Notes: generated from the letters alone by a model not told the origin. Counted from the stretch's first letter, positions 5,415 through 47,189 are shown. The stretch is 64,000 nucleotides of DNA from Candidatus Levyibacteriota bacterium (GCA_963790825.1 CAWBPM010000003.1:189681-253680); one strand, 5' to 3'. Numbers and translations: made by a program.

Positions 5415-6071
5415 TTAATAGTGCTCTTCCAGATTAATGATGGCCAACTCTTTTAAATACTTTTCAGTTTTTTGTTTTTTTACCCATGTTTGCAAATAGT
5501 TTTTATCAAGATTTTTTTCTTGAATTTGATAAACAAAGGCTGCATCGATGAGATGTTTTTCAATTTTTGAGTCTTTATACCACAAAAGTTTAATAAGAAT
5601 TGTATCCTCTGCACTAGCAAAAGTCATTGACTGACCGAAAACATTGATGTTTTTTCTTCTTTTAAATCGGGATATATCAAATTCACTATGTGTCAACAAC
5701 CAAAAATCCAGCTTCAGCATTGTTGGAAGATGCAAGACATTAAATTGGAATTTATTATTAACAGCATCTTCGATCATTGACGTATCAACCATAAATTCAC
5801 TAAGAGGTAGAGATAAAAATGTTTGCTTTATACGTTCAATATCCTTTTTTTCTGCTTCAATGATAAAATCAATATCGTGTGAGGCTCGTGGTCTTCCATA
5901 AAAGATTACACTTAGGGAACCTGTAACCATATAGGGAATTTTTGCACCCTGTAAAAGCGAGGTAATATCTTTAAGCAGTTGCTCTTGTCCAAGATCTTTT
6001 CTGTGTCTTGCCATATTTTTTACCTTCTTCGCGAAGTTTTTTGACAAAGCAATTAAGACGGAAAGCCACAC
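5415..6071 (-). CDS. Pol-beta superfamily nucleotidyltransferase (minimal NTase fold)
   Basis: GSLSVIFYGRPRASHDIDFII matches the GS...hD[IL]D nucleotidyltransferase signature. The true start may be the internal MARHRK (about 6014). Confidence 0.55.
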   Translation of the reverse strand: MWLSVLIALSKNFAKKVKNMARHRKDLGQEQLLKDITSLLQGAKIPYMVTGSLSVIFYGRPRASHDIDFIIEAEKKDIERIKQTFLSLPLSEFMVDTSMIEDAVNNKFQFNVLHLPTMLKLDFWLLTHSEFDISRFKRRKNINVFGQSMTFASAEDTILIKLLWYKDSKIEKHLIDAAFVYQIQEKNLDKNYLQTWVKKQKTEKYLKELAIINLEEHY

Positions 6072-6234: not shown

Positions 6235-7029
6235 TTATGCTTTCTTTGCAACCAAAACGATTCTATGTCTTGGCAAATTTATTCCTTTTTCCGTTTGAAA
6301 CTTTTCTACATATTCTTCTAAGTATTTTCTATCTTTTTCCGAATCATAATCTTCGAAGATAGGAACTCCTTGCAAAAAAGTATCTAAATCTTTGTAAGAA
6401 AGATAATATTCGTTGTAATGAAAATCTTGGGCATAAACAATCTTAAAGCCTGCTTTTTTAGTATCCTCAACATCTCTATCTAAAACTGAATTATCCCATT
6501 TTCCGTAATTTTGCCCTCTTCCGAAAATAACCTTAATGTCTTTTGTATCTTTTTCTCCTATATCTATAGATAAAAAATATCCTCCGGGTTTTAGCATTTT
6601 ATAGAATAACTGATAAATGAGAACAGCTCTTCTTGCATAAATAATGTCAAAATAATTTTTAGGATAGTTTAATTCACGCGTATTTTTTTCAATAAACTCG
6701 ACATTTTTTATCCCTTTTTCTTTTTGAAGTTTTCTTGCTGCATTTAACATTAATCTTGAGGTATCATTGCCAATTACTTTTTTAAAATGTGGCGCAATTT
6801 CAAGAGTAAATCTTCCGTCTCCACACCCAGCATCCAAAACAACTTTTTCTTTCCAGCTTAGCCCTGCCAGTTTTTCTTTAAAAATTTCTTCGGGTGCACC
6901 TGATCGAAACTCCTGAATATATTGTGCAGGATTGGAATAATTTCCAAACTTTTTTGCTACTTTATCATAAAAATCTTGTGCCATATGAGAAATTATAGCA
7001 CTTTTAGCTTTTAAGAGGCTTAATCCCAA
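6235..7029 (-). CDS. Class I SAM-dependent methyltransferase (paralog of 27051-27800)
   Basis: VLDAGCGDGRFT motif I. About 65% identical to the product of 27051-27800 over its full length. Confidence 0.7.
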   Translation of the reverse strand: MGLSLLKAKSAIISHMAQDFYDKVAKKFGNYSNPAQYIQEFRSGAPEEIFKEKLAGLSWKEKVVLDAGCGDGRFTLEIAPHFKKVIGNDTSRLMLNAARKLQKEKGIKNVEFIEKNTRELNYPKNYFDIIYARRAVLIYQLFYKMLKPGGYFLSIDIGEKDTKDIKVIFGRGQNYGKWDNSVLDRDVEDTKKAGFKIVYAQDFHYNEYYLSYKDLDTFLQGVPIFEDYDSEKDRKYLEEYVEKFQTEKGINLPRHRIVLVAKKA

Positions 7030-7148
7030 TTGCGTAAATTCCGTTTTTCTTTATTCCATCCGCATATTCTGTATGAGAATTATCATATCATGTTACAAAT
7101 AATATTATCTAACCTATAGTTTACTTTTGGCCATTTCTGTGGTACAAT

Positions 7149-8954
7149 TTGCACAAGCTTATGCCAATCGAAAGAGAATACATAAAAACTAGTTTAGACC
7201 TACAATCAGCACCCGATAATATTGCTGTATTCACTGGCTGGCCTTACGCAAATGGACCAAGACATTTGGGGCACGGTGCAGCATTGCTAATGGGAGATGT
7301 ATTATCAAGATATTATAGAGCGAGAGGCTCAAATGTTTTAATGGTGAGTGGTACCGATGAGTACGGAACACCGAATCAAATCGCTGCAGAAAAAAGAGGC
7401 GTAAGTACACAAACTTATGTTGATGAAATGAGTCAGGTAATTAGAAATGATTTTAAAGAATTGGGAATGAGCTTTGATCATTTTAGTAGAACTACATCTA
7501 AGGAACATCAAAAAGTAGCTAGATCATTTTTCGTAGACTTACTTGAAAAAGGTTATATAACCGAGGGAGAAATGAAAACGGCATATGATTCTTTAACCAA
7601 TAGATCTTTACCCGATAGATATGTAGAAGGAATATGCCCACACTGTAAATATTCTGAGGCTAGGGGAGATCAATGTGATTCATGCGGAAATCTATTAGAT
7701 TCATTTGAATTAATAAACCCAAAATCAAAATTAACCAACAATCAAGTGCTTTTTAAAGATTCGCCTCAGTTATTTTTAAGGCTAGATTTACTTGGAGATC
7801 AGATAAAAAAATGGGTTATGGGTCAAAAAGATTGGAGAGCAAACGCAAAAAATCAAGCCTTAGGTATGGTAGATGATCTTAAAGCCAGATCTATTTCTAG
7901 AGATTTAGATTGGGGCATTCCAATTCCCGATGATGTTTTAAATGGAAAATATAGCGATAAAGTATTATATGTTTGGTTCGAGGCTGTTATAGGATATCTT
8001 TCTGCTTCAATGGAATGGGCAAAAGCAAAAGGAAACCCAGAGGAATGGAAAGATTGGTGGAAAAATCCACAAGCGAAACATTTCTATGCGATAGGAAAAG
8101 ATAATATCCCATTTCACACAGTAGTATGGCCTGGAATGTTAATGGGGCATAATGAAGGGTCTGAATCCCCTCTTCATCTACCTGATCAAATCGTGAGTGC
8201 TGAATATTTAACCTACGGGTCAGAAAAATTTAGCAGTAGTAGAGAGAATACATTGTTCATTAAAGATGCGCTTAAGTTATTAGATCCTGATGTACTTAGG
8301 TATTATTTAGTATCCGCTGGACCTGAAACAAAAGATGCGGAATTTAGCTTAGAAGAACTAGTTCGCAGAAACAATGAGGAATTAGTTTCTACATGGGGTA
8401 ATTTAGTAAATAGGGTTTTAACTTTTTCTTATAAGCATTTTGGTTCTGTCCCTACGCCTGATAGTATTCTTCCCCCTGAAGATCAACAGCTCCTTCAAGA
8501 ATTATGGAAAGGTTTTGAAACAACCGGATCTTTAATCAAACAGACTAAATTTAAGGCTGGGTTATCCAGTTTTATGGTAATGGCAAAAAATGTTAATAGA
8601 TTCTTAAATGAAAAAAAACCTTGGGAAAGTATAAAAACTAATCGATCGGATGCAGCTACTACAATGTTTACAGCTTTAAATGCAGTAGATATTCTTGCAT
8701 CAATTGCTTCTCCATTTTTGCCATTTAGTAGCGATAAAATTTTGAGTTATTTAGGATATGATAATGGGATAAAAGGAGAAATCATCGAAGATCAAATAGA
8801 CATTGAGGGAAATATAATTGATGTTTTAAAAGGAAATTATAATCTATCAAAAGGATTTTGGACTCCAAGTAGATTAACTCCGGGTCAAAAATTAAGAGAG
8901 CCAAAAATACTTTTTCAAATATTAGATGTTAATCAACTTAAGCAATCAATTTAA
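7149..8954 (+). CDS. metG: Methionyl-tRNA synthetase, paralog 1 (KMSKS motif reads KFSSS)
   Basis: PYANGPRHLGHG (HIGH motif), zinc knuckle CPHCKYSEARGDQCDSCG, LPDRYVEG, YVWFEAVIGYLSAS. The KMSKS position reads EKFSSSR. A TGGTACAAT extended -10 box lies 12 nt upstream. Confidence 0.85.
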   Translation: MHKLMPIEREYIKTSLDLQSAPDNIAVFTGWPYANGPRHLGHGAALLMGDVLSRYYRARGSNVLMVSGTDEYGTPNQIAAEKRGVSTQTYVDEMSQVIRNDFKELGMSFDHFSRTTSKEHQKVARSFFVDLLEKGYITEGEMKTAYDSLTNRSLPDRYVEGICPHCKYSEARGDQCDSCGNLLDSFELINPKSKLTNNQVLFKDSPQLFLRLDLLGDQIKKWVMGQKDWRANAKNQALGMVDDLKARSISRDLDWGIPIPDDVLNGKYSDKVLYVWFEAVIGYLSASMEWAKAKGNPEEWKDWWKNPQAKHFYAIGKDNIPFHTVVWPGMLMGHNEGSESPLHLPDQIVSAEYLTYGSEKFSSSRENTLFIKDALKLLDPDVLRYYLVSAGPETKDAEFSLEELVRRNNEELVSTWGNLVNRVLTFSYKHFGSVPTPDSILPPEDQQLLQELWKGFETTGSLIKQTKFKAGLSSFMVMAKNVNRFLNEKKPWESIKTNRSDAATTMFTALNAVDILASIASPFLPFSSDKILSYLGYDNGIKGEIIEDQIDIEGNIIDVLKGNYNLSKGFWTPSRLTPGQKLREPKILFQILDVNQLKQSI

Positions 8955-9049
8955 ATAAGTTTCATGATTATATCGCGAAAGTTAAGAATATATAAAAAAT
9001 CTTTCAATGCATATTTATTGCATGTCATAAGTATCTAGAAATATAAAAT

Positions 9050-10069
9050 ATGAAAATAATTGATTATTCCCAAAACTTTAACGCAATAATTAATAAAAAC
9101 AAGATCAAAAAAGCTTTAGAAATAAGCTGTCAACAATTATTTAGTTATCCTCATAAAGATAAAAAAGAATTAACTAAAGTAATAGCAAAAAGTTTAAAAT
9201 TGCCTGAGAAGTCAATCACAATAGGAAATGGAGCAACAGAAATTATATTTACACTCCCACGGTTTTTTGATAACAAAAATATATTAATTTTATCACCAAG
9301 TTTTTGGGAATATAGTGCCGCAAATATGATAGATAAAAATAACAATATCGACTTTCATATTTTGAAAGAGGCTGATAATTTCCAATTAAACTTTACTGAA
9401 TTTGAAAGCAAAATAAAAAATTTTTCAACAATATATCTATGTAATCCGAATAATCCTACTTCTACCCTGATTGACAAAACAAAGCTTTTACATATAATCA
9501 AAAAAAAGACTAAATCTATTTTTATTGTCGACGAAACATATCTAATTTTTCGCGAAGACTTTAAAGAACATTCACTTATTAAAGAAGCTATTTCTCTAAA
9601 TAATCTCTATATAGTTATATCATTTTCTAAGTTTTTTTCTATACCAGGCTTAAGAATTGGGATATTAATATCTAAACCAAAAAATATAGAAAAATTTAAT
9701 AAAATTACGATCCCTTATTTGATAAACCCTATGGCAGAAATAATAATTCCTTATTTATTAAAACAAAAGCGGTTTATTGAAAAAACCAAAAAATTTTATT
9801 CAAAACAAAGAGTTAAGGCTTATAAACTTTTTTTAAATAACTTTAACGGAAAATTAAAAATCTTTAAGCCAGAGGCTAACTTTATACTGGTTAAAATATT
9901 AACCCAAAAAACAAGTCAAGAAGTAGTTGCTAAGCTAAAAAAGAATGGAATAATCCTAAGAGATGGTTCAAGATTTAAAAATCTTGGTTACAAATGGCTT
10001 AGAATCGCAATTCGAACAGACGAGGAAATGTTAATTCTTATTAAAAATTTGAAAAGAATAATTGAATAA
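9050..10069 (+). CDS. Class I/II (HisC/CobD-like) PLP-dependent aminotransferase/decarboxylase-fold enzyme
   Basis: NPNNPTS motif and SFSKFFSIPGLRIGI (PLP-lysine motif). The 339-aa size fits the CobD/HisC subfamily. Very AT-rich coding sequence. Confidence 0.6.
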   Translation: MKIIDYSQNFNAIINKNKIKKALEISCQQLFSYPHKDKKELTKVIAKSLKLPEKSITIGNGATEIIFTLPRFFDNKNILILSPSFWEYSAANMIDKNNNIDFHILKEADNFQLNFTEFESKIKNFSTIYLCNPNNPTSTLIDKTKLLHIIKKKTKSIFIVDETYLIFREDFKEHSLIKEAISLNNLYIVISFSKFFSIPGLRIGILISKPKNIEKFNKITIPYLINPMAEIIIPYLLKQKRFIEKTKKFYSKQRVKAYKLFLNNFNGKLKIFKPEANFILVKILTQKTSQEVVAKLKKNGIILRDGSRFKNLGYKWLRIAIRTDEEMLILIKNLKRIIE

Positions 10070-10080
10070 TTCTTCTATTT

Positions 10081-11085
10081 ATGAATGAAAAAGAAACCCT
10101 AAAAAACATAATTTTAATCAATGATAATTCTTTAATTGATAGTCATACTCATTGTGGTTTTGGTCATTACAACCTAATACAACAAAGATATCCGACCAGT
10201 CAAAGTGTAATAGACTTAGAATCAAAAACCGAATTGGCTGGCATTGATTTTGTTATTTCGTTCCCTTTTCCTGGAGAATTATATTATTTCGATATATTTG
10301 CAAATTCTGAAAGTGATTTGCCACAACATCCTCCAATTGAAAAATTTCCATATCATTTTGCAAATAGACAATTGTTATATGAGATTTCATTATTTGGCAA
10401 TAACAGAATTATACCATTCGCAAATATATATCCAAATCACGAAGAGGGGCAACAAGCTGATTATCTCGATGAATTAGCAAAACAAGGATTAATTTTTGGT
10501 CTTAAATTGCATACTCTAGCTACTCAGTATTCCGCTGAAGCTCTTGCCAAATCTCCATTTTTGGACGTTTCTCGTGCTCATTCGCTTCCGGTTATAATTC
10601 ATTCAGGTCCAGATGATATTTCTCATCCCATGAATGTTGTTGAATTAGCTGAAACAAATCCAGATATTCGATTTTGCATTGCACATATTGCTCGGTTTGA
10701 AAAACAAGTTTTTGATTACATTAGAAATAATAATTTACAAAATGTATTTATAGATACCGCCCCCTTGCTTTCCTTATGTAAACTTACACAACTTGATATA
10801 AATAATGGAATTGGCGGTGAAAAACTAAATTTACCGTATGATTCTCCTCAGCAAACTTTAGTAGAACTTTGTAAACTTATGCCTGGACATATTGTATGGG
10901 GAACAGACGAACCCTGGACGACTATTACAGACGACAAACAAAAGCAAATACTTATGAAGGCAAGATATGGAGACGAAGTAGCTATACTTAGATCTATTCC
11001 GCCTAAATTAACAAAAGAGATTGCACATGATAATCCAATTAAATTACTCTTCAGTAATTATGTACCATCTGAAATTCAATTATGA
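10081..11085 (+). CDS. Amidohydrolase-2 family (TIM-barrel metal-dependent hydrolase/decarboxylase)
   Basis: N-terminal IDSHTHCGFG (D-x-H-x-H metal ligands), internal HSG and CIAHIA histidines, about 330 aa. Confidence 0.5.
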   Translation: MNEKETLKNIILINDNSLIDSHTHCGFGHYNLIQQRYPTSQSVIDLESKTELAGIDFVISFPFPGELYYFDIFANSESDLPQHPPIEKFPYHFANRQLLYEISLFGNNRIIPFANIYPNHEEGQQADYLDELAKQGLIFGLKLHTLATQYSAEALAKSPFLDVSRAHSLPVIIHSGPDDISHPMNVVELAETNPDIRFCIAHIARFEKQVFDYIRNNNLQNVFIDTAPLLSLCKLTQLDINNGIGGEKLNLPYDSPQQTLVELCKLMPGHIVWGTDEPWTTITDDKQKQILMKARYGDEVAILRSIPPKLTKEIAHDNPIKLLFSNYVPSEIQL

Positions 11086-12548
11086 TATTAACTAAAAAAA
11101 ATAGAAAACAAGCGGAATTATTTTTTAATGACGTAATTAAATTAGGTTTGGATTTCAAATTACAAAATTCGGTTACCCCAAAATACTTAACAGAAAAAAA
11201 TGGGAAAAAATTAATAAAAAAACTTCCAATTAAGGGAAAATCTGAAAAAGAGATTTTAGAAGAATTTAAAAAAGAGATTTTACCCTATTGCACAAATTTT
11301 AGTAGTAATAATTTTATGGGTTTTCCAGATTCAGGCAATTCAGTTGCTGCAATTGGAGCTTCGTTTTTATATAACCTCTTGCAACAAAATCTAATTAATC
11401 AAAGTTTTTGTGGACCTTCTGCAACTTTTATAGAAATTTCCGTAATTAGATGGTTAAGAGAAACTGTAGGTTATAAAAATGGTTCTATATCAGACATTTG
11501 GGATGTAGGTGGAATAATAACTCCTGGTGGAACAGCTAGTAACGCTATTGGGGCACTTCTTGCTAGAGAAAATAGATTTCCCAATGCAATGGAAAATGGA
11601 ATATCAGACCTTGATAGATGCTGGATGATTGTTCCTAAGGGAATTGGTCATTATAGTATAAAAAGTGGTCAAATGTGGGTGGGTTGTGGAAACAAGTTAA
11701 TTGAAGTAGAAACAAATAATTTTAGATACGACCTGAATGATCTTAAAGCCAAGCTGGAGAAGAACCGAGGAAAAATTATGGGTCTTGTGGCATATGCTGG
11801 AGACAGTAGAACGATGACTGTTGACAATTTTCAAGCAATTGCAAAATTAGTTAAATCAATTGATCCAACCATATGGCTACATGCAGACGCTTGTCATGGT
11901 TTCAGTTTAGGTTTTAGTAAAAATCTAAAATATAAACTAAAAGGAATCGAAAAATTTGACAGCATAACCATGGATCCTCACAAAGTATTAGCTACACCAT
12001 ATGCCATTAGTGCTCTATTGGTAAAAGATCCTCATAAACTAAAAACAATTACTAGTTTGTCAGATTTAATTATGCAAGAAAAATTTGCTTTTGGGCAAAT
12101 TACCCCCTTCTTAGGTAGTAGATCCTGGGAATCTCTTAAACTGTGGTTTTTTATGAAAAACTTGGGTAAAGAAGGTTTAGATGATCTTATCCAAAAAAGA
12201 CATGAGTTAGCAATATATTTATCTGACAGATTAAAGATTGATTCAGACTTTATTGTTTTAAATGAAGTTGAGATTAATTCAGTTGTATTTATGTATAAAG
12301 GAAAAATAAAATTAAATGAAATAGATAAATTAAATTTAATAAATAAAAAGATACATGAACTTATAATAAAAGAGGGAAAGTATCATTTACACCAATTTAG
12401 TATTCCAGACTCCGGAAGAATAAAAAGCGGAGAGATAATCTACCCACAAAGATATATGTGTGGAAATCCAAACACAACAAAAAAAGATATACTTGAAATG
12501 GTCGAATATGTAAGAAAATTAGGTAAAAAAAATGAAAAATTACTATGA
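11082..12548 (+). CDS. Group II pyridoxal-dependent decarboxylase (GAD/CSAD/DABA-decarboxylase type)
   Basis: SITMDPHKVLATPYAISALLVKD matches the S-x-x-x-N/DPHK...ALLV[KR]D signature of GAD/CSAD-type decarboxylases. HADACHGF present. Overlaps the upstream gene by 4 nt, which suggests an operon. Confidence 0.7.
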   Translation: MILTKKNRKQAELFFNDVIKLGLDFKLQNSVTPKYLTEKNGKKLIKKLPIKGKSEKEILEEFKKEILPYCTNFSSNNFMGFPDSGNSVAAIGASFLYNLLQQNLINQSFCGPSATFIEISVIRWLRETVGYKNGSISDIWDVGGIITPGGTASNAIGALLARENRFPNAMENGISDLDRCWMIVPKGIGHYSIKSGQMWVGCGNKLIEVETNNFRYDLNDLKAKLEKNRGKIMGLVAYAGDSRTMTVDNFQAIAKLVKSIDPTIWLHADACHGFSLGFSKNLKYKLKGIEKFDSITMDPHKVLATPYAISALLVKDPHKLKTITSLSDLIMQEKFAFGQITPFLGSRSWESLKLWFFMKNLGKEGLDDLIQKRHELAIYLSDRLKIDSDFIVLNEVEINSVVFMYKGKIKLNEIDKLNLINKKIHELIIKEGKYHLHQFSIPDSGRIKSGEIIYPQRYMCGNPNTTKKDILEMVEYVRKLGKKNEKLL

Positions 12549-13207
12549 AAATTTCCCTGAAGAAAATAATTTTTGATTTTGAACCATATTTTAAAGAATA
12601 CTTTAGAAACAGAAAATATTTTGTATGTTTGTATGGTTCACATTTAACCAACAAAGCAAATGTACATTCTGACATAGATATCTTTATTGCACTACCTAAA
12701 TACACAAAGACTGATTTAAAAATTATTAAAAAATTTATTATTAATTATCATATTAAAAACAAATTAGAACTTGACAACGAAGTTCCATACGCAAATAAAT
12801 TACTAATTACCTATTCAGATTTGGATAAAGCTGTAAAGTTAGGTGGATTAAGTATTGAAAACGGGAAGTTAATTGTTCCTCCTATAATAAAAACTAAAAA
12901 ATTTTTGTCTTCCAAAAAAGTTAAATTAAGACTTGCATTTAACGCTTTAACTTCACCGCACAAATTTTTTGGTACAGATTTAGATCAATACTTTAAAATG
13001 AAAGAATTTGCAGAAAGTAATTTATTTTATCTATCCAAAACGTTTACAATCAAAAAAAAATTATCAATTAATAATTTAGTAGAAACTTTAATTAAAGGGG
13101 CGGATGGTGAAACTGGAGAGTTATATTTAGGTTATAAATCACACCCATTAGTATTAAAATATTTAAATAATATTATTAAAATCGAAAATCAAAGATCGGT
13201 TAAATAA
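12545..13207 (+). CDS. Pol-beta superfamily nucleotidyltransferase (small-molecule NTase-like)
   Basis: YGSHLTNKANVHSDIDIFIALP matches the GS-x(n)-hD[IL]D NTase motif. 4-nt overlap with the upstream gene. Confidence 0.55.
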   Translation: MKISLKKIIFDFEPYFKEYFRNRKYFVCLYGSHLTNKANVHSDIDIFIALPKYTKTDLKIIKKFIINYHIKNKLELDNEVPYANKLLITYSDLDKAVKLGGLSIENGKLIVPPIIKTKKFLSSKKVKLRLAFNALTSPHKFFGTDLDQYFKMKEFAESNLFYLSKTFTIKKKLSINNLVETLIKGADGETGELYLGYKSHPLVLKYLNNIIKIENQRSVK

Positions 13208-13351
13208 ATCATGATTCAAAATAAAATCGAGACATAAAATTATTTTAGGAAAATTATATTTACTGATTTAGTTTTATTAATTGAATATTTCTTATAACCC
13301 CTATTCTGGATTTATATAATATTTAATACTATAATATATTAACGAAGCTAA

Positions 13352-15043
13352 ATGAGTATAAATAAAACAGCTAATAAAGAAAAAAGATTTATAGGGGTTG
13401 CCTGGCCTTACGTTAATGGCGACTTACATATAGGACATCTGGCAGGTTATCTACTTCCAGCAGATATTTTTGCGAGATATTCACGATCAGCGGGCTATGA
13501 TGTTTTAATGGTATCGGGATCTGACTGCTTCGGAACACCTATAACCATAGAGGCAGATAAACAAGGTGAGTCACCGAAAAATATTGTTAAAAAATATCAT
13601 TCCAAAGATGTGTATTTATTTAAGAGAATCCTACATCTTTCTTATGATATATATACAAAAACAAATACCCAAAATCACATCAGTGTTGTACAAGATATGT
13701 TTCTTAAACTTTTAGAAAATGGTTTGATTTCTATTAATACTACGAAACAATATTACTCCCCCATTGATAAAAAGTTCTTACCCGATCGATATGTAGAAGG
13801 AGAATGTAAAAATTGTGGATTCTTAGAAGCGCGTAGCGATCAATGTGATAATTGCGGAAAAGTTCTCGATACGGGAGATATTAAGAATCCAATAAGTAAG
13901 TTAACTGGTGCAAATGTTGAATTAAGAGATACTCAACATTATTTTATAAATTGGCCAAAATTAGAAAAGAATATTGAAGAATATGTTAATAAAAATGGAC
14001 AGCAATGGAAGAAATGGGTCTTCGCTGAAACTCTCGGATGGCTAAAGCAGGGCTTAAAACCCAGAGCAATTACTAGGGATTTAGATTGGGGCGTTCCTTT
14101 ACCCATAAAAAGGATGCCAAAAAATTTAATAATAAATAATATTGAAAATAAACGTTTATATGTTTGGTTTGATGCAGTAATAGGATATTTATCCGCTTCT
14201 ATTCTATGGTCAAAAGAAACTGGCAAAAATTGGGAAATATTTTGGAAAGATAATTCTACTCGTCATTATTACTTTATGGGTAAAGACAACCTTATATTTC
14301 ACACTATTTTTTGGCCTGGGCAACTAATGGGTTACGATAAAAATCTTAAATTACCTGACATCGTAAGTATAAACATGTTTTTAAACTTAGATGGTAATCA
14401 ATTTTCAAAAAGTCGTGGCGTAACAATTTCAATTGAAGAAATTGTTAGAAAATTTGGTAACGACTCTGTTAGATTTTACTTAACACTTATCATGCCAGAA
14501 ATCAAAGATTCTAGCTTTAATTGGAATGATTTTTATAAACAAAATGATGATATATTGGTTGGAAATTTAGGTAATTTTATACATCGTGTTTTGTCAATTT
14601 CATTTAATTCTGGGACCAAGCAGCTTGTTAAAACAGAAATCAATTCAAAAATTAAATCAAATATTACAAACGCATTTAATAAATCCCATGAATATTTAAA
14701 CAATTGTGAATTTAAAAAATATTTAAATTCTATATTAGATTTATCAACAGTTGGAAACCAATACCTAAATGATATTAAATTATGGGAAATAAGAAAATCT
14801 AACAAATTAAAGTTTGACCAAGAACTTGTTCAATTATTTTCTATTATTATATCCATTGGGTATTTGATCTCTCCTTTAATGCCGGAAAGTTCTGATAAAA
14901 TTTTCAAAATGATTGGATTAGAAACTAATATGCCTTGGCCCAACCATAATTATGAAATTGATAATATAAGAGATTTATTATCTAAAGTAAAAATTAATAA
15001 GAAACCAATAATATTATTCTCAAAAATAACAACTAAATATTAA
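13352..15043 (+). CDS. metG: Methionyl-tRNA synthetase, paralog 2 (KMSKS motif reads QFSKS), embedded in the AT-rich operon
   Basis: WPYVNGDLHIGH, zinc knuckle CKNCGFLEARSDQCDNCG, LPDRYVEG, YVWFDAVIGYLSAS, QFSKSRG. About 40% identical to paralog 1 by eye. Confidence 0.85.
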   Translation: MSINKTANKEKRFIGVAWPYVNGDLHIGHLAGYLLPADIFARYSRSAGYDVLMVSGSDCFGTPITIEADKQGESPKNIVKKYHSKDVYLFKRILHLSYDIYTKTNTQNHISVVQDMFLKLLENGLISINTTKQYYSPIDKKFLPDRYVEGECKNCGFLEARSDQCDNCGKVLDTGDIKNPISKLTGANVELRDTQHYFINWPKLEKNIEEYVNKNGQQWKKWVFAETLGWLKQGLKPRAITRDLDWGVPLPIKRMPKNLIINNIENKRLYVWFDAVIGYLSASILWSKETGKNWEIFWKDNSTRHYYFMGKDNLIFHTIFWPGQLMGYDKNLKLPDIVSINMFLNLDGNQFSKSRGVTISIEEIVRKFGNDSVRFYLTLIMPEIKDSSFNWNDFYKQNDDILVGNLGNFIHRVLSISFNSGTKQLVKTEINSKIKSNITNAFNKSHEYLNNCEFKKYLNSILDLSTVGNQYLNDIKLWEIRKSNKLKFDQELVQLFSIIISIGYLISPLMPESSDKIFKMIGLETNMPWPNHNYEIDNIRDLLSKVKINKKPIILFSKITTKY

Positions 15044-16037
15044 AGACTTTTACTGCCTCTTCTTCAGAGAGTGGATAAAAACAAAAAACCTTTCTATCGT
15101 TTTTAGAATAATCCAACAAATTTAGAATCTTTCCATTCCCATTAACCAAAACTAATCTTGAGTTATTTGAATCTGCTATGAGATATTTACTACCAGCTAT
15201 CTCAATAGCATCTTGAACCCAATTAAAATTATTTTTAATCTCCTTAATTATTTTGAATTTTTCTGTTAAAACTAACACTCTATTATTTAAAGTATCACTT
15301 ACAATATATCCTAAATTTGAATATCTTATATTGTGTGGACATTTTAATCCGCTTAATTTAGTATTCCATTTTTTTGTATTCTTATCTATCTCTATTACAC
15401 TCCCCTGATGAAATAAAGTTGCTAATATTTTATTATCACCAATTTCTAAGCAACTATTTATGTGTGTTACATGCTCTGGCGTAGCCGTTACTACTTTAGT
15501 ATAGTCACAATTTTTATCTATAACTCTTCTATTTCCTTGTGGATTTAATGCAAAACCATTCTCTGTTGCAAGCCAATCCCAAACAAAATTACTAAAATTA
15601 GAATTATTAAATTCAAGTATACTATCCGTACCTGTTGAAACAACAAATAAGTTGCCATTTTTACTTTTTGATAACCCATGTAAATCATTAAACATTTTGT
15701 TTGTGTATTGTTCTTGGACTATTCCATTCGTTATAAACTTTATAGTTTTGCCGCTTGCACAAAAAAGACCACCACGCTCAGTGTCATATTCTAGACCAGT
15801 TGCCCATGGTAATGGAATTTCGGATATAAAGCCTTTATCTAATCTTGTTGCATCTATTAAGCAAACAGCACCACCTAGTTGCGTATCTTCAGTTTTAATA
15901 GTGGTTGATTTTGATCGACCGAGGAATTTTTTATGCTCTGCATCTCTTTGTTTCCATTGTTGCCTAAGTATTTTAAGACCTTTAGGATCTGTTGCTAAAA
16001 AACTAACAGCAAATAACTCTTTTTTTATCTTTTTCAT
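15033..16037 (-). CDS. NHL-repeat / six-bladed beta-propeller-like protein
   Basis: Repeated hydrophobic-[DN]-x-x-N-x-R-[VL] blocks (IVSDTLNNRVLVL, LIADSNNSRLVLVN). Convergent with metG2, overlapping it by 11 nt. Confidence 0.35.
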   Translation of the reverse strand: MKKIKKELFAVSFLATDPKGLKILRQQWKQRDAEHKKFLGRSKSTTIKTEDTQLGGAVCLIDATRLDKGFISEIPLPWATGLEYDTERGGLFCASGKTIKFITNGIVQEQYTNKMFNDLHGLSKSKNGNLFVVSTGTDSILEFNNSNFSNFVWDWLATENGFALNPQGNRRVIDKNCDYTKVVTATPEHVTHINSCLEIGDNKILATLFHQGSVIEIDKNTKKWNTKLSGLKCPHNIRYSNLGYIVSDTLNNRVLVLTEKFKIIKEIKNNFNWVQDAIEIAGSKYLIADSNNSRLVLVNGNGKILNLLDYSKNDRKVFCFYPLSEEEAVKVFNI

Positions 16038-16121
16038 AGTCTTATTTATATTAAAAATTTAATAATATAGCATATTTATAATTACAATCCTTATTTTGGT
16101 TTACTAATATATAAATATGTA

Positions 16122-16328
16122 TTACCTTTTTATACCCCAAGAAATTTTATTCCAACTCCTCTCATGAAAGTAATAGAATACTAATTTTATAAGTCCATCT
16201 AAACCACCTATGCTTAATGAAATTAAAAGTTTATGTGTAAAAAAGAAAACAATACTTGCAGTTATAAAGGAAGCAATAATTCTCCAGGTGATTGTTTTAA
16301 TTATACTTCTTAGACGATGTTCATTCAT
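16122..16328 (-). CDS. Small two-helix membrane protein (DUF2061-like)
   Basis: 68 aa, with TWRIIASFITASIVFFF and a second hydrophobic helix. Immediately downstream of the sat/cysC fusion. Confidence 0.35.
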   Translation of the reverse strand: MNEHRLRSIIKTITWRIIASFITASIVFFFTHKLLISLSIGGLDGLIKLVFYYFHERSWNKISWGIKR

Positions 16329-16354
16329 ATGTAATATAATTTACAAAATTAAAA

Positions 16355-18013
16355 CTAATTCTTAATATATTTATTTTTTTGTAAAAAATTAATTATTTCA
16401 TTTACACAGGAGGATACACTTCTATTTGCAGTATTTATATTTAATTCTGAATTTTCAGGCACCTCATAATTATCATCTTTGCCTGTAAGCCCTTTAAGCT
16501 TACCAATGCTTTGCATTTTATATAAACCTTTTTCATCTCTTTTAATACATATATTTAAGGGTGTAGATACATATATCTCAACATAGTTTCCGTTTTTTTC
16601 TATCATGAACCTATTTTTTAATCTAGCTTCATTATACGGAGCTATAGCGGCACAAATAGTTATTCCTCCATGTCTTGTTACCTCATTAGCTACAAATCCA
16701 ATACGAGCAATATTTGTATCTCTATCCTCCTTGCTAAACCCTAAGCCTTTAGATAGATTTTGCCTTACGATATCTCCATCAAGTAATGTAATATTTTTTG
16801 TTTGCATTTCAAGCAGTTTAAAATATAACATTCTGGCTAGAGTAGACTTACCTGAAGACGGTAAACCTGTAAAAAAAATGGTTAATCCTTCTTTTTTCTG
16901 ACGATTAATATTATTTTTTATTTCTTTAATTACTTCCGGAAAAGAAAACCAAGACGGAATAGTCTCATTTTCTATAATCATTTTTCTAAATTGAGTACCT
17001 GAAATACTTTTAACAGTTTGATTTTTTTTTACCTCATTAATTGGCAAATAATCATTTATTTCCTCAACATAAACCATCTCATTAAAAAAAATCGGAACTA
17101 TGCCAATTTCATCTTTATATTTTTCAACAAGTTTCTGGGCCTCATAAGGATCGTAATAGGGTTTGCCATTCTTATCGCTTCCAGGACTTGCGTGATCTCT
17201 CCCAACTATAAAATGCGTACATCCATAGTTCTTTCTGATTATTGCATGGAGAATTGCTTCTCGTGGTCCGGCCATTCTCATTGCAAGAGGAAGAAGACTC
17301 AAATATCCAAAATCATTAATATATTTGTTATATAAGTAAATATAACATTTTGTTCTGGTAATATAATCTATGTCACCCTCTTTAGTCTCACCTACAGAAG
17401 GGTGCAATAGTATCTTTGCATGTTGTTCATTGGCCGCTCTTTTTATCATTGCAAAATGAGCCTTATGAAGAGGGTTTCTGGTTTGAAATCCTATTATTCT
17501 TTTCCATCCGAGTTTTTTAAATATTGTTTTTAATTCTTTAGGAGAATGTCTAAACTCAGAAAAATCAGATCTTTCTATATCGTGAATTTTTATTATTTTA
17601 CCTCCAACATAATATTTTCCGGTATTGAAAAATAATTGATTAACCCCAGAGTGATTTTTATCAGTAGTTCCATAAACTTTATTTGCTTCCAATATTTTAT
17701 TTGGTTCATAAATTGATTCGATAATTAAAAAGGCGATTGGTTTTCCAAATTCATCACAAAGTATAATTTTTTGTCCTACTGAGTATTTATTTTTATCATC
17801 AATATCTAAAACAATAGGAATTGGCCAGATACTTCCATTGCTTAAATGCATATTATTAACCACGCTTTCATAATCCATTTTATTTAGAAAACCTTGTAAT
17901 GGAGAAAACCCACCATTCACAATAAGTTCCAGGTCACATATTTGTCTTGTATTCAAAGTCAATCTTAATAGATCTGACTTTGATTTATTCCGAGAAGAGG
18001 AATTATTAATCAT
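16355..18013 (-). CDS. sat/cysC: Bifunctional sulfate adenylyltransferase (ATP sulfurylase) / adenylylsulfate kinase (PAPS synthase)
   Basis: N-terminal PUA-like region plus QTRNPLHKAH and HFIVGRDHAS (ATP-sulfurylase motifs). C-terminal GLPSSGKSTLA P-loop and LLDGDIVRQ (APS-kinase motifs). Confidence 0.85.
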   Translation of the reverse strand: MINNSSSRNKSKSDLLRLTLNTRQICDLELIVNGGFSPLQGFLNKMDYESVVNNMHLSNGSIWPIPIVLDIDDKNKYSVGQKIILCDEFGKPIAFLIIESIYEPNKILEANKVYGTTDKNHSGVNQLFFNTGKYYVGGKIIKIHDIERSDFSEFRHSPKELKTIFKKLGWKRIIGFQTRNPLHKAHFAMIKRAANEQHAKILLHPSVGETKEGDIDYITRTKCYIYLYNKYINDFGYLSLLPLAMRMAGPREAILHAIIRKNYGCTHFIVGRDHASPGSDKNGKPYYDPYEAQKLVEKYKDEIGIVPIFFNEMVYVEEINDYLPINEVKKNQTVKSISGTQFRKMIIENETIPSWFSFPEVIKEIKNNINRQKKEGLTIFFTGLPSSGKSTLARMLYFKLLEMQTKNITLLDGDIVRQNLSKGLGFSKEDRDTNIARIGFVANEVTRHGGITICAAIAPYNEARLKNRFMIEKNGNYVEIYVSTPLNICIKRDEKGLYKMQSIGKLKGLTGKDDNYEVPENSELNINTANRSVSSCVNEIINFLQKNKYIKN

Positions 18014-18389: not shown

Positions 18390-21061
18390 TATTTTTTCCC
18401 ACTTCCGCACCAGCAGGGATCGTTGCGACCGAGTTTTGCATGACTATTTTGCACGGGAGCAGAAGACGCACTTGCTTTTCGCATTTGTTCACTTACTTCA
18501 CTCTCCGGTGTATTTAACTTTATGTTACTTTGCTCCTGAACAGGTACCGGGTTTTGGGTTATTTGAATTCTATAGATTCTATGTACAATCTCGTCATCGA
18601 TTCCCGCGATCAGCTGCTCAAACATTTTGAATGCTTCATTTTTATATTCCACCAATGGATCTTTTTGTGCATACCCCCGAAGACCGATGCCACCCCGCAA
18701 ACTTTCAATCGCATCCAGATGTGCCATCCATAAATTATCAATGACTGATAACATAACAAATCGCTCAGCAAAACGTGAAAGCTCTTTTCCCATTTGCTCT
18801 TCTCGCCGTGCGTAAATATCATGAGCAACTTGCGTCAAAAATTCTGTTTTTTCTTCAGTAGCTGTTCGCTGTTCAAGTTGTTGGATAAGCTGTTGTTGGG
18901 ACTGCGGGTCGAATTGAATAATGGTCCCGAATGCTTCCATAATTTTTTCATTCGCTGATTTTTCTAAGTCTAAATTCCCCTCGCCATTCACAACAACAAG
19001 TGTTTGAATCGCGCTATCGATACGGTTCACAACTTCGTTGCGAAGTGTATCTTGCGATTTTTCAGCCGATTCCAGAACTTTTTTTCTAAGTGTATAGATG
19101 ATTTCCCTATGCTTATTCAAAACATCATCATACTCAACCGTATGCTTCCTGCTGTCAAAATAAAATCCTTCTACCTTTACCTGCGCGTTTTCAATAGCCT
19201 TCGAAACGAGTGAGTGTTCAAGCGGTACGTCTTCCGGCATATTAAACCGTGTCATAATGCCGGCAATTCGGTCTCCGCCAAAAAGCCGCATAATCTCGTC
19301 TTCCAAAGAAACAAAAAACTTAGAAGCACCGGGATCTCCCTGCCTGCCAGATCGTCCTCGAAGCTGATTATCGATACGTCTGGATTCATGCCGTTCCGTA
19401 CCGATAACATAAAGTCCGCCCAGTGAAACGACCTCATCATGTGCTTTCTGCCAGGCTTTAAATTCACTAGTTCCAATTGCTGCCCGTCCATCTTCTATTT
19501 TCGGCGAGTCGCCGCCTAAGATAATGTCAACTCCGCGTCCCGCCATGTTCGTCGCCACCGTCACAGCATTTTTTGCTCCGGCCTGCGCGATAATTTCTGC
19601 CTCTTTGACGTGGTTTTTGGCATTTAATACCTGGTGTACTATTCCCCGCCTCTTAAGCAGTTCGGAAAGAATCTGGTTCTTATCAATTGACGTCGTACCG
19701 ACCAGTACGGGTTGTCCTCTTTTATGTGCCTTGTCAATCTCAGAAACGACCGCAGTAAACTTCGCCCGCGATGTTTTATATACCGCGTCAGGATAGTCGG
19801 TTCTGTTGATAGGATTATTTGTAGGAATCACCACGACGTCCAGTTTGTAGATTTTCTGGAATTCTTCCGCTTCGGTAACAGCTGTTCCTGTCATGCCGGA
19901 AAGGAGGCGGTACATACGGAAATAATTTTGCAGAGACACTGTTGCCAAAGTTTTCGATTCCCGCTGAATTGGCACATTTTCCTTTGCTTCGATAGCCTGG
20001 TGAATTCCTTCCGAGAGCCGGCGTCCTTCCATAAGTCTGCCGGTAAATTCATCAACCAAAATCACCTGATTATCACGAACGATATAATCTTTTTCGCGGT
20101 GAAACAGGGTTCGTGCTTTAAGTGCCGCTTCCAGGTGGTAGACGGTATCAAAATCTTTCTCGTAGATATTCTGGATTCCGTATAGCTTTTCTATTTTGCC
20201 GATACCATGATCAGTCAAATGTGCGGTTCGCAGTTTTTCATCTATTTTATAATCAGTCTCGGACGTCAATTTATCGACTATTTTCGCGTAATCATAATAC
20301 TTGGCAGAAGGCGATTCGTCGGGTGCTGAAATAATATGCGGCGTTCTCGCTTCATCAATCAAAACTGAGTCGACCTCATCAACAATTGCAAAATAATATT
20401 CTCTTTGGCTGATATCTTTAATATCCTGAGCCATATTATCACGCAGGTAATCGAACCCGAATTCCGAATTAATGCCGTAGACGACATCTGCCTGATATGC
20501 TTCCTTTCTGGTAATTGGTCTAAGGTGCGAAAGTCTGAAATCCGTTGCTGTTTGATCGGTAAAATCAGGATCATAAAGATACGAACGTTCACTAATAATT
20601 GATGAGACTGAAACACCCAGCAGATGAAATACCGGCCCCATCCATCCCGCGTCTCTCCGAGCCAGATAATCATTGACAGTAACCAGATGCACTCCCCGTC
20701 CGGTCAAACTATGGAGATAAAGCGCCAAAATCGCGGAGAGGGTTTTTCCTTCTCCGGTTTTTTGTTCGGCAATCTTTCCTCTGGAGAGAACAACTCCTGC
20801 CATAAGTTGCACGTCATAGTGCCAAAGTCCCGTTGTCCGTTTGCTTGCTTCACGACATAGTGCAAATGCTACAGGCAGAATCGTATCGGTTGTTTCGCCT
20901 GACTGTAATCTGTTTTTTAACTCCTGAGTTTTCTTAGGAAAATCAGTATCTTTCAGTTTTTCGTATTCTTTAGAAAACGCATTTATTTCGGCGATAACCG
21001 GTTTGAGCCGTTCAATTTCACGATCATTGGAATCAAATAATTTAGAAAGAAGAGGAATCAT
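18365..21061 (-). CDS. secA: Preprotein translocase ATPase SecA
   Basis: N-terminal DEAD motor (KTGEGKTL), preprotein cross-linking domain, and C-terminal zinc finger CWCGSGKKYKRCH. TGGTAAGAT extended -10 box 6 nt upstream of the ATG. Confidence 0.95.
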   Translation of the reverse strand: MIPLLSKLFDSNDREIERLKPVIAEINAFSKEYEKLKDTDFPKKTQELKNRLQSGETTDTILPVAFALCREASKRTTGLWHYDVQLMAGVVLSRGKIAEQKTGEGKTLSAILALYLHSLTGRGVHLVTVNDYLARRDAGWMGPVFHLLGVSVSSIISERSYLYDPDFTDQTATDFRLSHLRPITRKEAYQADVVYGINSEFGFDYLRDNMAQDIKDISQREYYFAIVDEVDSVLIDEARTPHIISAPDESPSAKYYDYAKIVDKLTSETDYKIDEKLRTAHLTDHGIGKIEKLYGIQNIYEKDFDTVYHLEAALKARTLFHREKDYIVRDNQVILVDEFTGRLMEGRRLSEGIHQAIEAKENVPIQRESKTLATVSLQNYFRMYRLLSGMTGTAVTEAEEFQKIYKLDVVVIPTNNPINRTDYPDAVYKTSRAKFTAVVSEIDKAHKRGQPVLVGTTSIDKNQILSELLKRRGIVHQVLNAKNHVKEAEIIAQAGAKNAVTVATNMAGRGVDIILGGDSPKIEDGRAAIGTSEFKAWQKAHDEVVSLGGLYVIGTERHESRRIDNQLRGRSGRQGDPGASKFFVSLEDEIMRLFGGDRIAGIMTRFNMPEDVPLEHSLVSKAIENAQVKVEGFYFDSRKHTVEYDDVLNKHREIIYTLRKKVLESAEKSQDTLRNEVVNRIDSAIQTLVVVNGEGNLDLEKSANEKIMEAFGTIIQFDPQSQQQLIQQLEQRTATEEKTEFLTQVAHDIYARREEQMGKELSRFAERFVMLSVIDNLWMAHLDAIESLRGGIGLRGYAQKDPLVEYKNEAFKMFEQLIAGIDDEIVHRIYRIQITQNPVPVQEQSNIKLNTPESEVSEQMRKASASSAPVQNSHAKLGRNDPCWCGSGKKYKRCHFPN

Positions 21062-21087
21062 ATATTTATCTTACCATACCCCAGCCT

Positions 21088-21119
21088 CAAAAAAAACCCC
21101 CAAGCAAATGCCTGGGGGC
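21088..21119 (-). terminator. Intrinsic terminator: GC hairpin (GCCCCCAGG/CTTGGGGG) followed by a T8 run on the minus strand
   Basis: Minus strand reads gcccccaggcatttgcttgggggtttttttt. Lies downstream of serS and the small ORF, about 30 nt before the secA promoter. Confidence 0.6.
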
Positions 21120-21159
21120 TTAACTACCAATTGATCAATTGGTGAAAGAAACAAAAAAG

Positions 21160-21219
21160 TTATTTCTTCTTCTTCTTTGTTGACTTTCTTGCTACTTTCT
21201 TGGTTTTTTTGGCTGCCAT
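21160..21219 (-). CDS. 19-aa lysine-rich small ORF (MAAKKTKKVARKSTKKKKK) with a perfect Shine-Dalgarno sequence
   Basis: TAAGAAGGAGGTGATCCGC lies immediately 5' of the ATG (complement of the 16S rRNA 3' end). Followed by the 16-nt palindrome CCAATTGATCAATTGG, then the terminator. Confidence 0.35.
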   Translation of the reverse strand: MAAKKTKKVARKSTKKKKK

Positions 21220-21434
21220 GCGGATCACCTCCTTCTTACCTGCATAAATTGATAAATTCAATACTTGAGGCAGGTTGCATCTATAGTGAAATATTTTTAT
21301 CATTATGTCAAGTAAATTTATTGCTTCAAAGTTAGCAGTTTAGCTTGTCAATTCAGCAAAAATCATCATACCAAATTATTACTTTTTTATTACAAGTTGA
21401 GGCTAAATTTTAGAAAAATTTTGAGGCTAAAATT

Positions 21435-25871: not shown

Positions 25872-25929
25872 TCCAGACTCCCCGGCAATTTAGTTTAGCC
25901 TATTAAATCAATCTTTTTTTTTGTCCTCT

Positions 25930-27014
25930 TGAATAAGTCACGATACATATTGGAATCTTAAGGAAGAAGATTCTATGCCAAGTGATTTTAAACGAGTAAG
26001 ACATTTACGACCAAAATACTCACAAAAGAGCTATCATATACTGATGAAAATGCTCCAGAATTCATTAGCAGTTGAAGTATCCGATGTAGCTGCTTTTCGC
26101 CTTCACGTGATTAATCACTACTACAAGTATGGACTGCGTCCAACCCTTGCTGCATTCAAAATAAAGAAGAGCAGCTTATACAACTGGAGAAATGCTTATG
26201 AACACAACGGAAAAAGGACAATCAGTTTAGTGCCACACGGAACTAGACCTCTCCATGTGCGAAAGATGGAGACAGACTGGAGAATAATTGAGTTCATTAG
26301 AGAGATGAGGCATGAGCATGGGAATATTGGTAAAAGTATGCTCAAGCCCTTTGTTGATGCGTATGCCAAAGAGCTGGGTATTAAGACCTTGGCAGAAAGT
26401 ACTATTGGGAAAGTACTTAAAAGACGTCACTTAACATTTGAGAAGAAAGTCTACCCACAGAAACAAAAAAACAAGTTCAAAAAGCTAAGAGTGAGAAAGT
26501 CTCCTAAGGTAGTTTCTCCTGGATTTATTGAGATGGATTCAGTAGTTGTCTATATCAATTTTGAGAAACATTTGTTTATGTGTGTGATTGATATTTACAC
26601 AAAATTTGCCTTAGTTGTATATGTACCGGATCTCTCCTCAGTAACAGCAAGAGAGGTTTTTAAGCAGTTCCAGTGCAATAATCCAACACCGATTCATACA
26701 ATCCAAACAGATAATGGATCAGAGTTTCTCAAATCATTCCATGAGTATATAGTTGAACAGAAAATTAAACATCAATTTATCTATCCCAGAATGCCAAAGA
26801 TTAATAGTTACATTGAGAGATTCAATCGGACAATCCAGGAGGAATTCATTTTAAGAAATGACGAGATTTACTATGACTCAGAAGCATTTGCAAAAAAGCT
26901 CACAAAGTATTTATACTGGTATAACTATAAGAGGCCACATGCTTCGCTTAAATACATGTCGCCTATGTCCTTTATACAAGCCAAGATTCCAATAAGTGCG
27001 TGACGCATACACCT
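25930..27014 (+). mobile_element. IS element copy 1 (1085 bp; single DDE/rve transposase; IS30- or IS481-like); identical to 47190-48274
   Basis: Imperfect terminal inverted repeats GTCACG-N6/7-TTGGAATCTT at both ends. 2-bp flanking direct repeat CT/CT. The whole element is repeated at 47190-48274. Confidence 0.8.
25975..27003 (+). CDS. DDE-type (rve integrase-core) transposase
   Basis: N-terminal HTH-like region; catalytic D (IEMDS), D (IQTDNGSEF), E, then YNYKRPHASL (rve signature). AAGGAAGAAG Shine-Dalgarno sequence upstream. Confidence 0.85.
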   Translation: MPSDFKRVRHLRPKYSQKSYHILMKMLQNSLAVEVSDVAAFRLHVINHYYKYGLRPTLAAFKIKKSSLYNWRNAYEHNGKRTISLVPHGTRPLHVRKMETDWRIIEFIREMRHEHGNIGKSMLKPFVDAYAKELGIKTLAESTIGKVLKRRHLTFEKKVYPQKQKNKFKKLRVRKSPKVVSPGFIEMDSVVVYINFEKHLFMCVIDIYTKFALVVYVPDLSSVTAREVFKQFQCNNPTPIHTIQTDNGSEFLKSFHEYIVEQKIKHQFIYPRMPKINSYIERFNRTIQEEFILRNDEIYYDSEAFAKKLTKYLYWYNYKRPHASLKYMSPMSFIQAKIPISA

Positions 27015-27050
27015 CTTCCTGGACGTTAAACTTTTTGCTATACTTTGGAT

Positions 27051-47115: not shown

Positions 47116-47189
47116 GCCCCAAGTTGGAAGATTTCTTGTGATATTTTAGACAACACAAGATACCTTATTTTATTAAATAAACGGCCTAT

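Follow-up and report, generated by a model that had tools for sequence, protein, structure and literature searches.

Why should two genes for methionyl-tRNA synthetase (MetRS) lie within 5 kb of each other, next to what looks like a small biosynthetic operon? This question is raised by a 64,000-nucleotide stretch of DNA from a Candidatus Levyibacteriota bacterium (GCA_963790825.1 CAWBPM010000003.1:189681-253680; hereafter the window, with all positions counted from its first letter), and the two genes are here called P1 and P2. In the window and at related loci we observed a core module that comprises a group II pyridoxal phosphate (PLP)-dependent decarboxylase (deC), an ANT-like nucleotidyltransferase (NTase), a HisC/CobD-like PLP enzyme (AT) and MetRS, and, judged by sequence, the wider module family appears to be a deC-NTase pair matched to one class I synthetase, whether MetRS, arginyl-tRNA synthetase (ArgRS) or leucyl-tRNA synthetase (LeuRS). 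Taking together the gene identities, intact MetRS residues, island composition, linkage, fusions, synthetase pairing and deC co-variation observed here, the answer that we tentatively favor is a mobile, amino-acid-specific pathway whose product might act against the cognate synthetase, the gene for which would be carried along as protection.

The two synthetase genes are as follows:

7149-8954, + strand: MetRS P1, KFSSS-type, a xenolog resembling the Chloroflexota/Actinomycetota enzymes, with one zinc knuckle and an anticodon-binding domain
13352-15043, + strand: MetRS P2, QFSKS-type, the ordinary Patescibacteria type, with one zinc knuckle and an anticodon-binding domain

Both open reading frames (ORFs) announced in an earlier sequence-only reading of this DNA were found, 4.4 kb apart, and the MetRS motifs that it quoted were all located at their expected places in P1 (HLGH at 7263-7274, aa 39-42; LPDRYVEG at 7608-7631; zinc knuckle at 7635-7685; YVWFEAVIGYLSAS at 7968-8009; KFSSS at 8226-8240) and in P2 (HIGH at 13427-13438, aa 26-29; LPDRYVEG at 13778-13801; zinc knuckle at 13805-13855; YVWFDAVIGYLSAS at 14159-14200; QFSKS at 14399-14413). 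The pair is more divergent than the roughly 40% identity first proposed, with BLASTP giving 35% across 523 aa. P1 is 601 aa long from a TTG start (597 aa from the ATG at 7161 in the database version) and P2 is 563 aa long. Each matches Pfam tRNA-synt_1g plus Anticodon_3 (PF19303), and the TIGR00398 metG model scores P1 at 488 bits and P2 at 459 bits (cut-off 336); both stay under the full-length cut-off of NF001100 because they lack the C-terminal part of that model. When aligned with an Escherichia coli MetRS reference sequence, its numbering checked against the motifs, P1 and P2 keep Y15, HxGH, D52, W253, A256, Y260, D296 and H301, as well as the residues that recognize the CAU anticodon (N391, R395 and W461). 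Only the P1 clade has a pocket change of its own, A12->G, common to P1 and its close relative L002.2 (labels beginning with L refer to the related loci described below). On these features P1 and P2 are members of the canonical class Ia MetRS and complete, probably active methionyl-tRNA synthetases, neither of them a degenerate paralog. A pseudogene or truncated copy, which the sequence-only reading had also discounted, was rejected, the ORFs being full-length and the domains, metG scores and key residues intact. With pocket and anticodon-binding residues all in place, the suggestion that one copy is a non-discriminating or regulatory variant found no support.

The KMSKS-type loops had been taken as non-canonical in both copies, which they are only when set against E. 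coli. Of the 120 homologs closest to P1, ~100 have KFSSS, and among the closest 120 P2 homologs QFSKS is present in ~74 and KFSKS in ~39; alignments place KFSTS in the Pyrococcus abyssi MetRS, for which a structure has been solved, and KFSKS in human MetRS. Each variant thus being the majority form of its subfamily, we rejected the loops as a sign of altered catalysis. An independent Logan assembly from another run has the identical gene order from P1 through SecA, and the arrangement is therefore no assembly artifact.

P2, the copy that the sequence-only reading had placed in the AT-rich operon, is not the odd one. Judged by its relatives, P2 is the ordinary MetRS type of Patescibacteria (candidate phyla radiation, CPR), being 55-70% identical to MetRS of WWE3, Roizmanbacteria and Shapirobacteria; its closest relatives (62-70% identity) are linked to the same gene cluster and those at 58-60% are unlinked. 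By the same kind of comparison P1 is the foreign type of the two. Just two close relatives of P1 were found (73-74% identity), one of them cluster-linked (L002), and beyond these, MetRS of Chloroflexota and Gaiellaceae (Actinomycetota) share 47-50% identity with it; in one Chloroflexota/Gaiellaceae-type genome the P1-like gene stands in a normal metG-tatD context. The nearest relatives of the whole cluster (deC 79-87% identical; L018, L042, L002) carry either a MetRS1-type gene or a MetRS1-type gene together with a P1-type one, and the linked synthetase therefore appears to turn over rapidly.

Between P1 and P2, four genes follow one another on the same strand:

9050-10069, + strand: AT, a HisC/CobD-like class I/II PLP enzyme (PF00155 at 7e-37)
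10081-11085, + strand: an Amidohydrolase_2 family protein, accessory (PF04909)
11082-12548, + strand: deC, a group II PLP-dependent decarboxylase, core (PF00282 at 3e-45)
12545-13207, + strand: NTase, a Pol-beta-superfamily nucleotidyltransferase with a helical C-terminal domain, core (PF01909/PF18765)

The amidohydrolase/deC and deC/NTase junctions both overlap by 4 nt. AT scores 205 bits with TIGR01140 (CobD) and 184 bits with TIGR01141 (HisC), both under the cut-off. The solved structures closest to deC are CSAD, GADL1, GAD and a DABA-related (diamine-forming) enzyme, at ~1e-29, and deC is the most conserved core gene, with a mean column identity of 70% across phyla. A sequence search of the PDB gave no match for NTase or the amidohydrolase. 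The AlphaFold2 model of NTase (predicted local distance difference test 88) has as its nearest folds AAD(9), ANT(3'')(9), KNTase, DrrA and GlnE-N. An exhaustive profile search resolved the NTase family into 411 clusters at 50% identity (a word-index search gave 7 proteins). An anti-phage defense system was considered and rejected, PADLOC having returned nothing but a generic MNT-like match for NTase.

With the decarboxylase rather than MetRS as bait, 13 related loci were recovered from genomes and 80 from metagenomes, several of them re-assemblies of one organism, and their gene content was mapped by tblastn. The genes deC, NTase and AT occur together in 52 loci, and in 42 of these a MetRS gene lies at most 5.8 kb away; the 10 loci that have none all end within 1.7 kb on one side. 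The gap between MetRS and deC is <150 bp in 16 loci. We estimate that by chance one gene would fall within ~6 kb of a given locus in a few percent of genomes of 0.5-1 Mb. The linked MetRS, which stand in at least ten gene orders, comprise at least nine types, with <48% identity between types: CPR-type QFSKS/KFSKS forms, Chloroflexota-like KFSSS forms, short PRK12267/MetRS1-type KISKS forms, Firmicutes-associated PRK00133/MetRS2-type KISKS or KMSKS forms, and archaeal-like KISTS and QLSTS forms (for the MetRS1/MetRS2 classification, see PMC7916415). Types also switch, the PRK00133-type being found in Firmicutes-like loci and on a Bacillus cereus plasmid, and the PRK12267-type in some Patescibacteria-like loci. 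As a control, MetRS of the same subfamilies occur in other genomes away from the cluster (P0024, P0031, P0040, P0125), and the linkage is therefore not lineage synteny. What had been read from one window as a MetRS within a biosynthetic-looking operon is thus a conserved association and no chance duplicate. A pair of MetRS genes recurs at single loci: in the window, L002, L013/14, L055 and L062. Among linked MetRS aligned across the relevant positions, Y15, D52, W253, A256, Y260, D296, H301, N391, R395 and W461 are kept in all, and HxGH in all except L021.1 and L062.2.

MetRS is not the only partner. Sister clusters from soil and actinomycetes carry ArgRS in the order deC-S-adenosylmethionine (SAM) methyltransferase-NTase-ArgRS (L072, L076, L083, L086 and L100, the last being Nocardia farcinica NZ_LN868939.1); other orders are deC-ArgRS-NTase (L091) and deC-NTase-LeuRS (L053), and deC-methyltransferase-NTase loci with no ArgRS detected end just after NTase. 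Four deC positions, 73/86/87/110, are invariant inside each subfamily and switch between them, reading F/N/S/C in the Met-type, E/D/D/D in the Arg-type and W/N/S/C in the Leu-type locus. They lie in two N-terminal segments that, by sequence alignment, coincide with the selectivity region of CSAD/GAD; CSAD F94, S114 and Y116, which we take to be substrate-selectivity residues, align to deC D83, N103 and I105. Because the acidic segment pairs with ArgRS and the neutral/hydrophobic one with MetRS or LeuRS, the alignment suggests that deC handles the linked synthetase's own amino acid or a close analogue.

A version of the cluster with its own metG is plasmid-borne in Bacillus cereus HN001 (L098; pRML02, NZ_CP011157.1, 99.7-115.1 kb). 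It encodes, in addition to metG, a BtrH_N/DUF6005 protein, NTase, AT, a CatA-like acetyltransferase, an NT5C-like nucleotidase, an acyl carrier protein (ACP), two adenylate-forming enzymes, a decarboxylase (52-57% identical) and an ATP-binding cassette (ABC) transporter; ABC or major facilitator superfamily (MFS) transporters and ACP with adenylating enzymes occur in the B. cereus and Streptomyces versions. No near-identical B. cereus cluster was found on other plasmids in the plasmid collection. Genes that protect a producer typically look like this: an essential gene in duplicate on a mobilizable plasmid, within a cluster that has an exporter. By analogy the pRML02 metG would fit this pattern. 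The core genes are also joined to one another by fusion: NTase is fused to the N-terminus of MetRS in several independent sequences (L003, 796 aa; L019, 778 aa; L025; P0248, 771 aa; P0263, 805 aa; P0246), to deC in P0334, P0295, P0364 and P0365, and to AT in P0266, P0307, P0353 and L013/14.

Together, these comparisons point to a mobile module, specific to one amino acid, that requires the matching class I synthetase gene in cis. We hypothesize, in the favored reading, that deC would use the cognate amino acid, or one closely resembling it, as substrate, that NTase, helped by AT or the methyltransferase, would convert the result into a compound that bears a nucleotide, is specific for the side chain and targets the cognate synthetase, and that the co-inherited synthetase gene or genes would serve as an insensitive or spare target, so that the producer keeps translating. 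By analogy with known producers, protection seems the most economical mechanism because the MetRS lineages are interchangeable and switch subtype against the host norm, and because the plasmid and exporter context goes together with intact tRNA-binding residues. In the structural model, the nearest relatives of NTase are antibiotic adenylyltransferases, which also points this way. Self-resistance or an aaRS-like biosynthetic enzyme had been proposed for the window at the outset, and this remains the best frame, now by virtue of the plasmid copy, the fusions and the ArgRS/LeuRS clusters; the argument from the KMSKS variants is discounted.

Several points weigh against protection. Linked and unlinked P2-type MetRS intermix at ~60% identity, and there is therefore no dedicated "resistant" clade, nor do linked MetRS have a diagnostic pocket substitution other than the one in the P1 clade. 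The modeled fold matches of NTase are weak (E ~0.01, template modeling score 0.38), no obvious exporter is encoded in the Patescibacteria-type loci, and three loci with deC and NTase are synthetase-free in the flanks available (L007, L044, L094). The linked MetRS may have no second copy beside it in small Patescibacteria genomes, and the NTase-MetRS fusions would suit joint catalysis no less well than immunity. The substrate of the module, its product, the toxicity of that product and any resistance of P1 or P2 are inferred from comparative genomics. More doubtful still is the generalization that such modules (deC plus an ANT-like NTase, and optionally a HisC-like PLP enzyme or a SAM methyltransferase) form an unrecognized, widespread and compact family, each tied to MetRS, ArgRS or LeuRS with a deC pocket tuned to the amino acid of that synthetase and each making synthetase-directed amino-acid-nucleotide conjugates.

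Self-resistance synthetases are well known from antibiotic clusters, such as mupM/ileS2 for mupirocin, agnB2 for agrocin 84, borO for borrelidin, the seryl-tRNA synthetase (SerRS) of albomycin and the tryptophanyl-tRNA synthetase of indolmycin. The module resembles these in that an intact full-length second synthetase, often of another subtype than the host's own, is co-inherited with a mobile or plasmid-borne small-molecule cluster; it differs in that its core is two to three enzymes, and that the synthetase is sometimes fused and may be the sole copy in tiny genomes. Another parallel is MetRS2. Inhibitors of MetRS1 do not affect this second MetRS, which is found in Streptococcus pneumoniae and the Bacillus anthracis/cereus group. 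There too a MetRS of another subtype was acquired horizontally beside the native one, and PRK00133/MetRS2-type is what the linked copies are in Firmicutes-like loci and on the B. cereus plasmid; the pathogen genes, unlike the copies described here, are not known to be cluster-linked, and a common origin is a hypothesis. In microcin C biosynthesis, the adenylyltransferase MccB, the SAM-dependent MccD of methyltransferase fold and the N-terminal PLP decarboxylase domain of MccE together yield an aspartyl-adenylate mimic. The likeness lies in nucleotidyl transfer, a SAM-enzyme fold and PLP decarboxylation tied to a compound directed at one synthetase. The difference is that MccB is ThiF-like and NTase here has a Pol-beta fold; moreover, MccE-N belongs to a different PLP fold group from deC, and immunity to microcin C comes from acetylation, a peptidase or efflux, not from a second synthetase. 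Microcin C is reviewed in PMC8323819. Our literature search retrieved no natural MetRS- or ArgRS-directed product or cluster, and a full-text search retrieved no account of a decarboxylase-nucleotidyltransferase cluster linked to MetRS or ArgRS.

Among the other explanations, the one that survives best, though we consider it unlikely, gives the synthetase a direct function in the pathway, that of supplying Met-, Arg- or Leu-tRNA or an enzyme-bound aminoacyl-adenylate, from which the amino acid would be transferred onto the amine or nucleotide scaffold that deC, NTase and AT produce. The NTase-MetRS fusions and the short MetRS-deC gaps speak for it, as does the place of the synthetase within the operon, where its gene can separate deC from NTase (L091) or overlap the stop codon of NTase (L086). 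So do the strictly kept anticodon-binding residues, as expected if tRNA charging matters, and the way in which synthetase identity tallies with deC pocket type. A precedent is VlmL, the dedicated SerRS of the valanimycin cluster, where VlmA is the aminoacyl-tRNA-dependent transferase; as with VlmL, a synthetase predicted from its sequence to charge tRNA is encoded in the pathway, but no VlmA-like transferase is recognizable in the core module. Pfam scans of the core module likewise gave no Fem/GNAT-like, CDPS or PEARL/LanB-like family (some accessory ORFs have no family at all), and charged tRNA would already be available from the housekeeping enzyme. The linked genes belong to many unrelated MetRS lineages and not to one co-evolving dedicated paralog, and no dedicated tRNA gene is linked: none recurred across 43 loci, and the window holds no tRNA gene. 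As to regulatory RNA, the window has no Rfam family, and no T-box or riboswitch was found in 10 Firmicutes-like and B. cereus loci. Furthermore, ArgRS requires tRNA for arginine activation, which speaks against a tRNA-free adenylate role in the Arg-type clusters.

The composition and wider gene content of the locus bear on the remaining alternatives. The AT-rich operon of the sequence-only reading is real, with a GC content of 0.25-0.32 over 9-18 kb compared to ~0.40 elsewhere in the window, but P2 is not alone inside it: GC content at third codon positions (GC3) is 0.18-0.23 for every ORF at 6235-18013, both MetRS genes included, and 0.30-0.43 in most other window ORFs, including SecA, SerRS, RsmB and MurJ. 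This composition points to an island of ~12 kb that was probably acquired horizontally, with both MetRS genes as cargo. The other genes of the island are:

6235-7029, - strand: a class I SAM methyltransferase (Pfam methyltransferase domains; GC3 0.21) at the left island edge
15033-16037, - strand: an NHL-repeat-like protein, accessory (weak PF01436 match)
16355-18013, - strand: a bifunctional ATP sulfurylase/adenosine phosphosulfate kinase for 3'-phosphoadenosine-5'-phosphosulfate (PAPS) synthesis (NF004040, 756 bits, cut-off 669; GC3 0.20)

We tentatively count the methyltransferase as a cluster member; in L105 a methyltransferase stands directly upstream of a P1-like MetRS. A paralog at 27045-27800 (+ strand), inverted, of low GC3 and 78-79% identical to it in DNA, comes directly after the first of two identical copies of an insertion sequence (IS) of ~1.09 kb (25925-27015 and 47185-48275), which encodes a 342-aa rve-family integrase, and the methyltransferase paralogs may mark IS-mediated rearrangement of island material. 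The amidohydrolase gene is also present in L001, L002, L003, L019, L020, L022, L028 and L102, and homologs of the NHL-like protein adjoin deC in L007, L021, L022, L039 and L096. The PAPS synthase is possibly an accessory gene of the cluster. It stands inside the low-GC island of an apparent Patescibacteria genome, and the related locus L001 has a sulfotransferase (20635-21417); no homolog of the synthase was found in the other related loci fetched. Just outside the island, an ORF at 5415-6071 (- strand) has weak AbiEii-toxin and aminoglycoside-nucleotidyltransferase-like Pfam matches. A perfect sigma-70 consensus (TTGACA, 16 nt, TATAAT) is present within the AT gene at 9471-9498 (+ strand); promoter and terminator scans of the AT-rich region gave sites that are not enriched over shuffles.

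Accessory genes vary among the related loci. They include, for nucleotide and phosphoester chemistry, genes for a 2H/LigT-like phosphoesterase, a type I phosphodiesterase, Nudix and HAD proteins and an NT5C-like nucleotidase, together with an APH-family kinase, a GT4 glycosyltransferase, a sulfotransferase and radical SAM enzymes. Methionine salvage, with the APH-family kinase as MtnK, was rejected, the NCBIfam matches being just weak ones to APH(3')/ThiK. Among individual loci, L007 lies among ribosomal protein genes, L044 has a methyltransferase and a 2H phosphoesterase, and L094 has AT. L103 (8001-17713) places a P2-type MetRS beside a weak decarboxylase homolog and GT4, APH, HAD and Nudix genes, and in L097 (10001-14708) a decarboxylase relative is ~2 kb from a MetK-like (SAM synthetase) gene. 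A RelA/SpoT gene (HD, RelA_SpoT and TGS domains) stands directly upstream of deC in L011, L056, L057, L058, L070 and L091; in L008 it is ~4.4 kb upstream, with MetRS and other genes between it and deC. This placement may be plain synteny or may tie the cluster to the detection of uncharged tRNA.

This setting could be read as cell-envelope decoration, or as a metabolic pathway making a nucleotide-activated amino-alcohol or amine phosphate, with the housekeeping metG merely co-regulated or adjoining and the second MetRS an ordinary duplicate, acquired horizontally and of no special role. Surface-polysaccharide loci are typically low in GC, in L001 and L002 the cluster is joined by genes for a kinase, a GT4 glycosyltransferase, an epimerase/dehydratase and a sulfotransferase, L001 adjoins Wzy and flippase genes, the window has its PAPS synthase beside the cluster, and MetRS borders ordinary translation genes in L006 and L102. 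We nonetheless find this improbable, as glycan-related genes occur in just a few loci and the explanation leaves too much aside: the linkage over at least nine MetRS types and several phyla, the metG of the B. cereus plasmid, the NTase-MetRS fusions, and ArgRS/LeuRS clusters with matching deC pockets.

Yet less probable is that the module modifies tRNA, attaching a decarboxylated amino acid to a base once it is nucleotidyl-activated, or that NTase AMPylates the synthetase. The former would follow the logic of agmatidine and lysidine, modifications of a tRNA-Ile(CAU) that MetRS would otherwise mischarge, and the use of agmatine by TiaS resembles the logic of a decarboxylase making an amine. DrrA and GlnE, among the fold neighbors of NTase, are AMPylators; the accessory 2H/LigT-like phosphoesterases, Nudix hydrolases and nucleotidases, and the RelA/SpoT gene directly upstream in several Firmicutes-like loci, could likewise belong to tRNA modification or regulation. 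However, no tRNA gene is consistently linked and no Rfam element was found, and the extra synthetase copies, the transporters, the ACP with adenylating enzymes and the ArgRS/LeuRS versions stay unexplained. Finally, the idea that P1 or P2 is a biosynthetic ligase like the hydrazine synthetases (Spb40/Tri28/PyrN), MetRS-like but working without tRNA, is effectively refuted: hydrazine synthetases are tRNA-free MetRS homologs of natural-product pathways that combine a MetRS-like domain with a zinc cupin and a lysine N-hydroxylase and activate Gly, Glu, Ser, Ala or Tyr (PMC8664883), and the locus resembles them in having a MetRS homolog within a cluster, sometimes fused to a partner enzyme, but P1 and P2 are ordinary MetRS that keep the anticodon-binding domain and recognition residues and score as full metG, and Pfam scans of the window and related loci gave no cupin domain or gene and no lysine/ornithine N-hydroxylase.

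Whether the synthetase protects the producer or takes part in the pathway, the co-variation between deC pocket and synthetase is a handle on predicting the chemistry, and if the synthetase is a catalyst, intact class I synthetases would gain a new role in the biosynthesis of small molecules. Synthetase genes inside clusters are a proven beacon for antibiotics against that synthetase, and the module is a concrete lead, with a plasmid version in a culturable B. cereus strain and actinomycete versions in Nocardia and Streptomyces. If the favored reading of a mobile pathway with its own protection is true, specialized metabolism reaches the ultra-small Patescibacteria, and such clusters could be a natural origin for drug-insensitive second MetRS genes, which is relevant to the development of MetRS inhibitors. 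If the modules are indeed a widespread family, natural antimetabolites directed at MetRS and ArgRS would be known for the first time, with even ultra-small Patescibacteria and gut Firmicutes among the producers, and these compounds could represent a natural selective force behind the spread of MetRS2 in Gram-positive pathogens.

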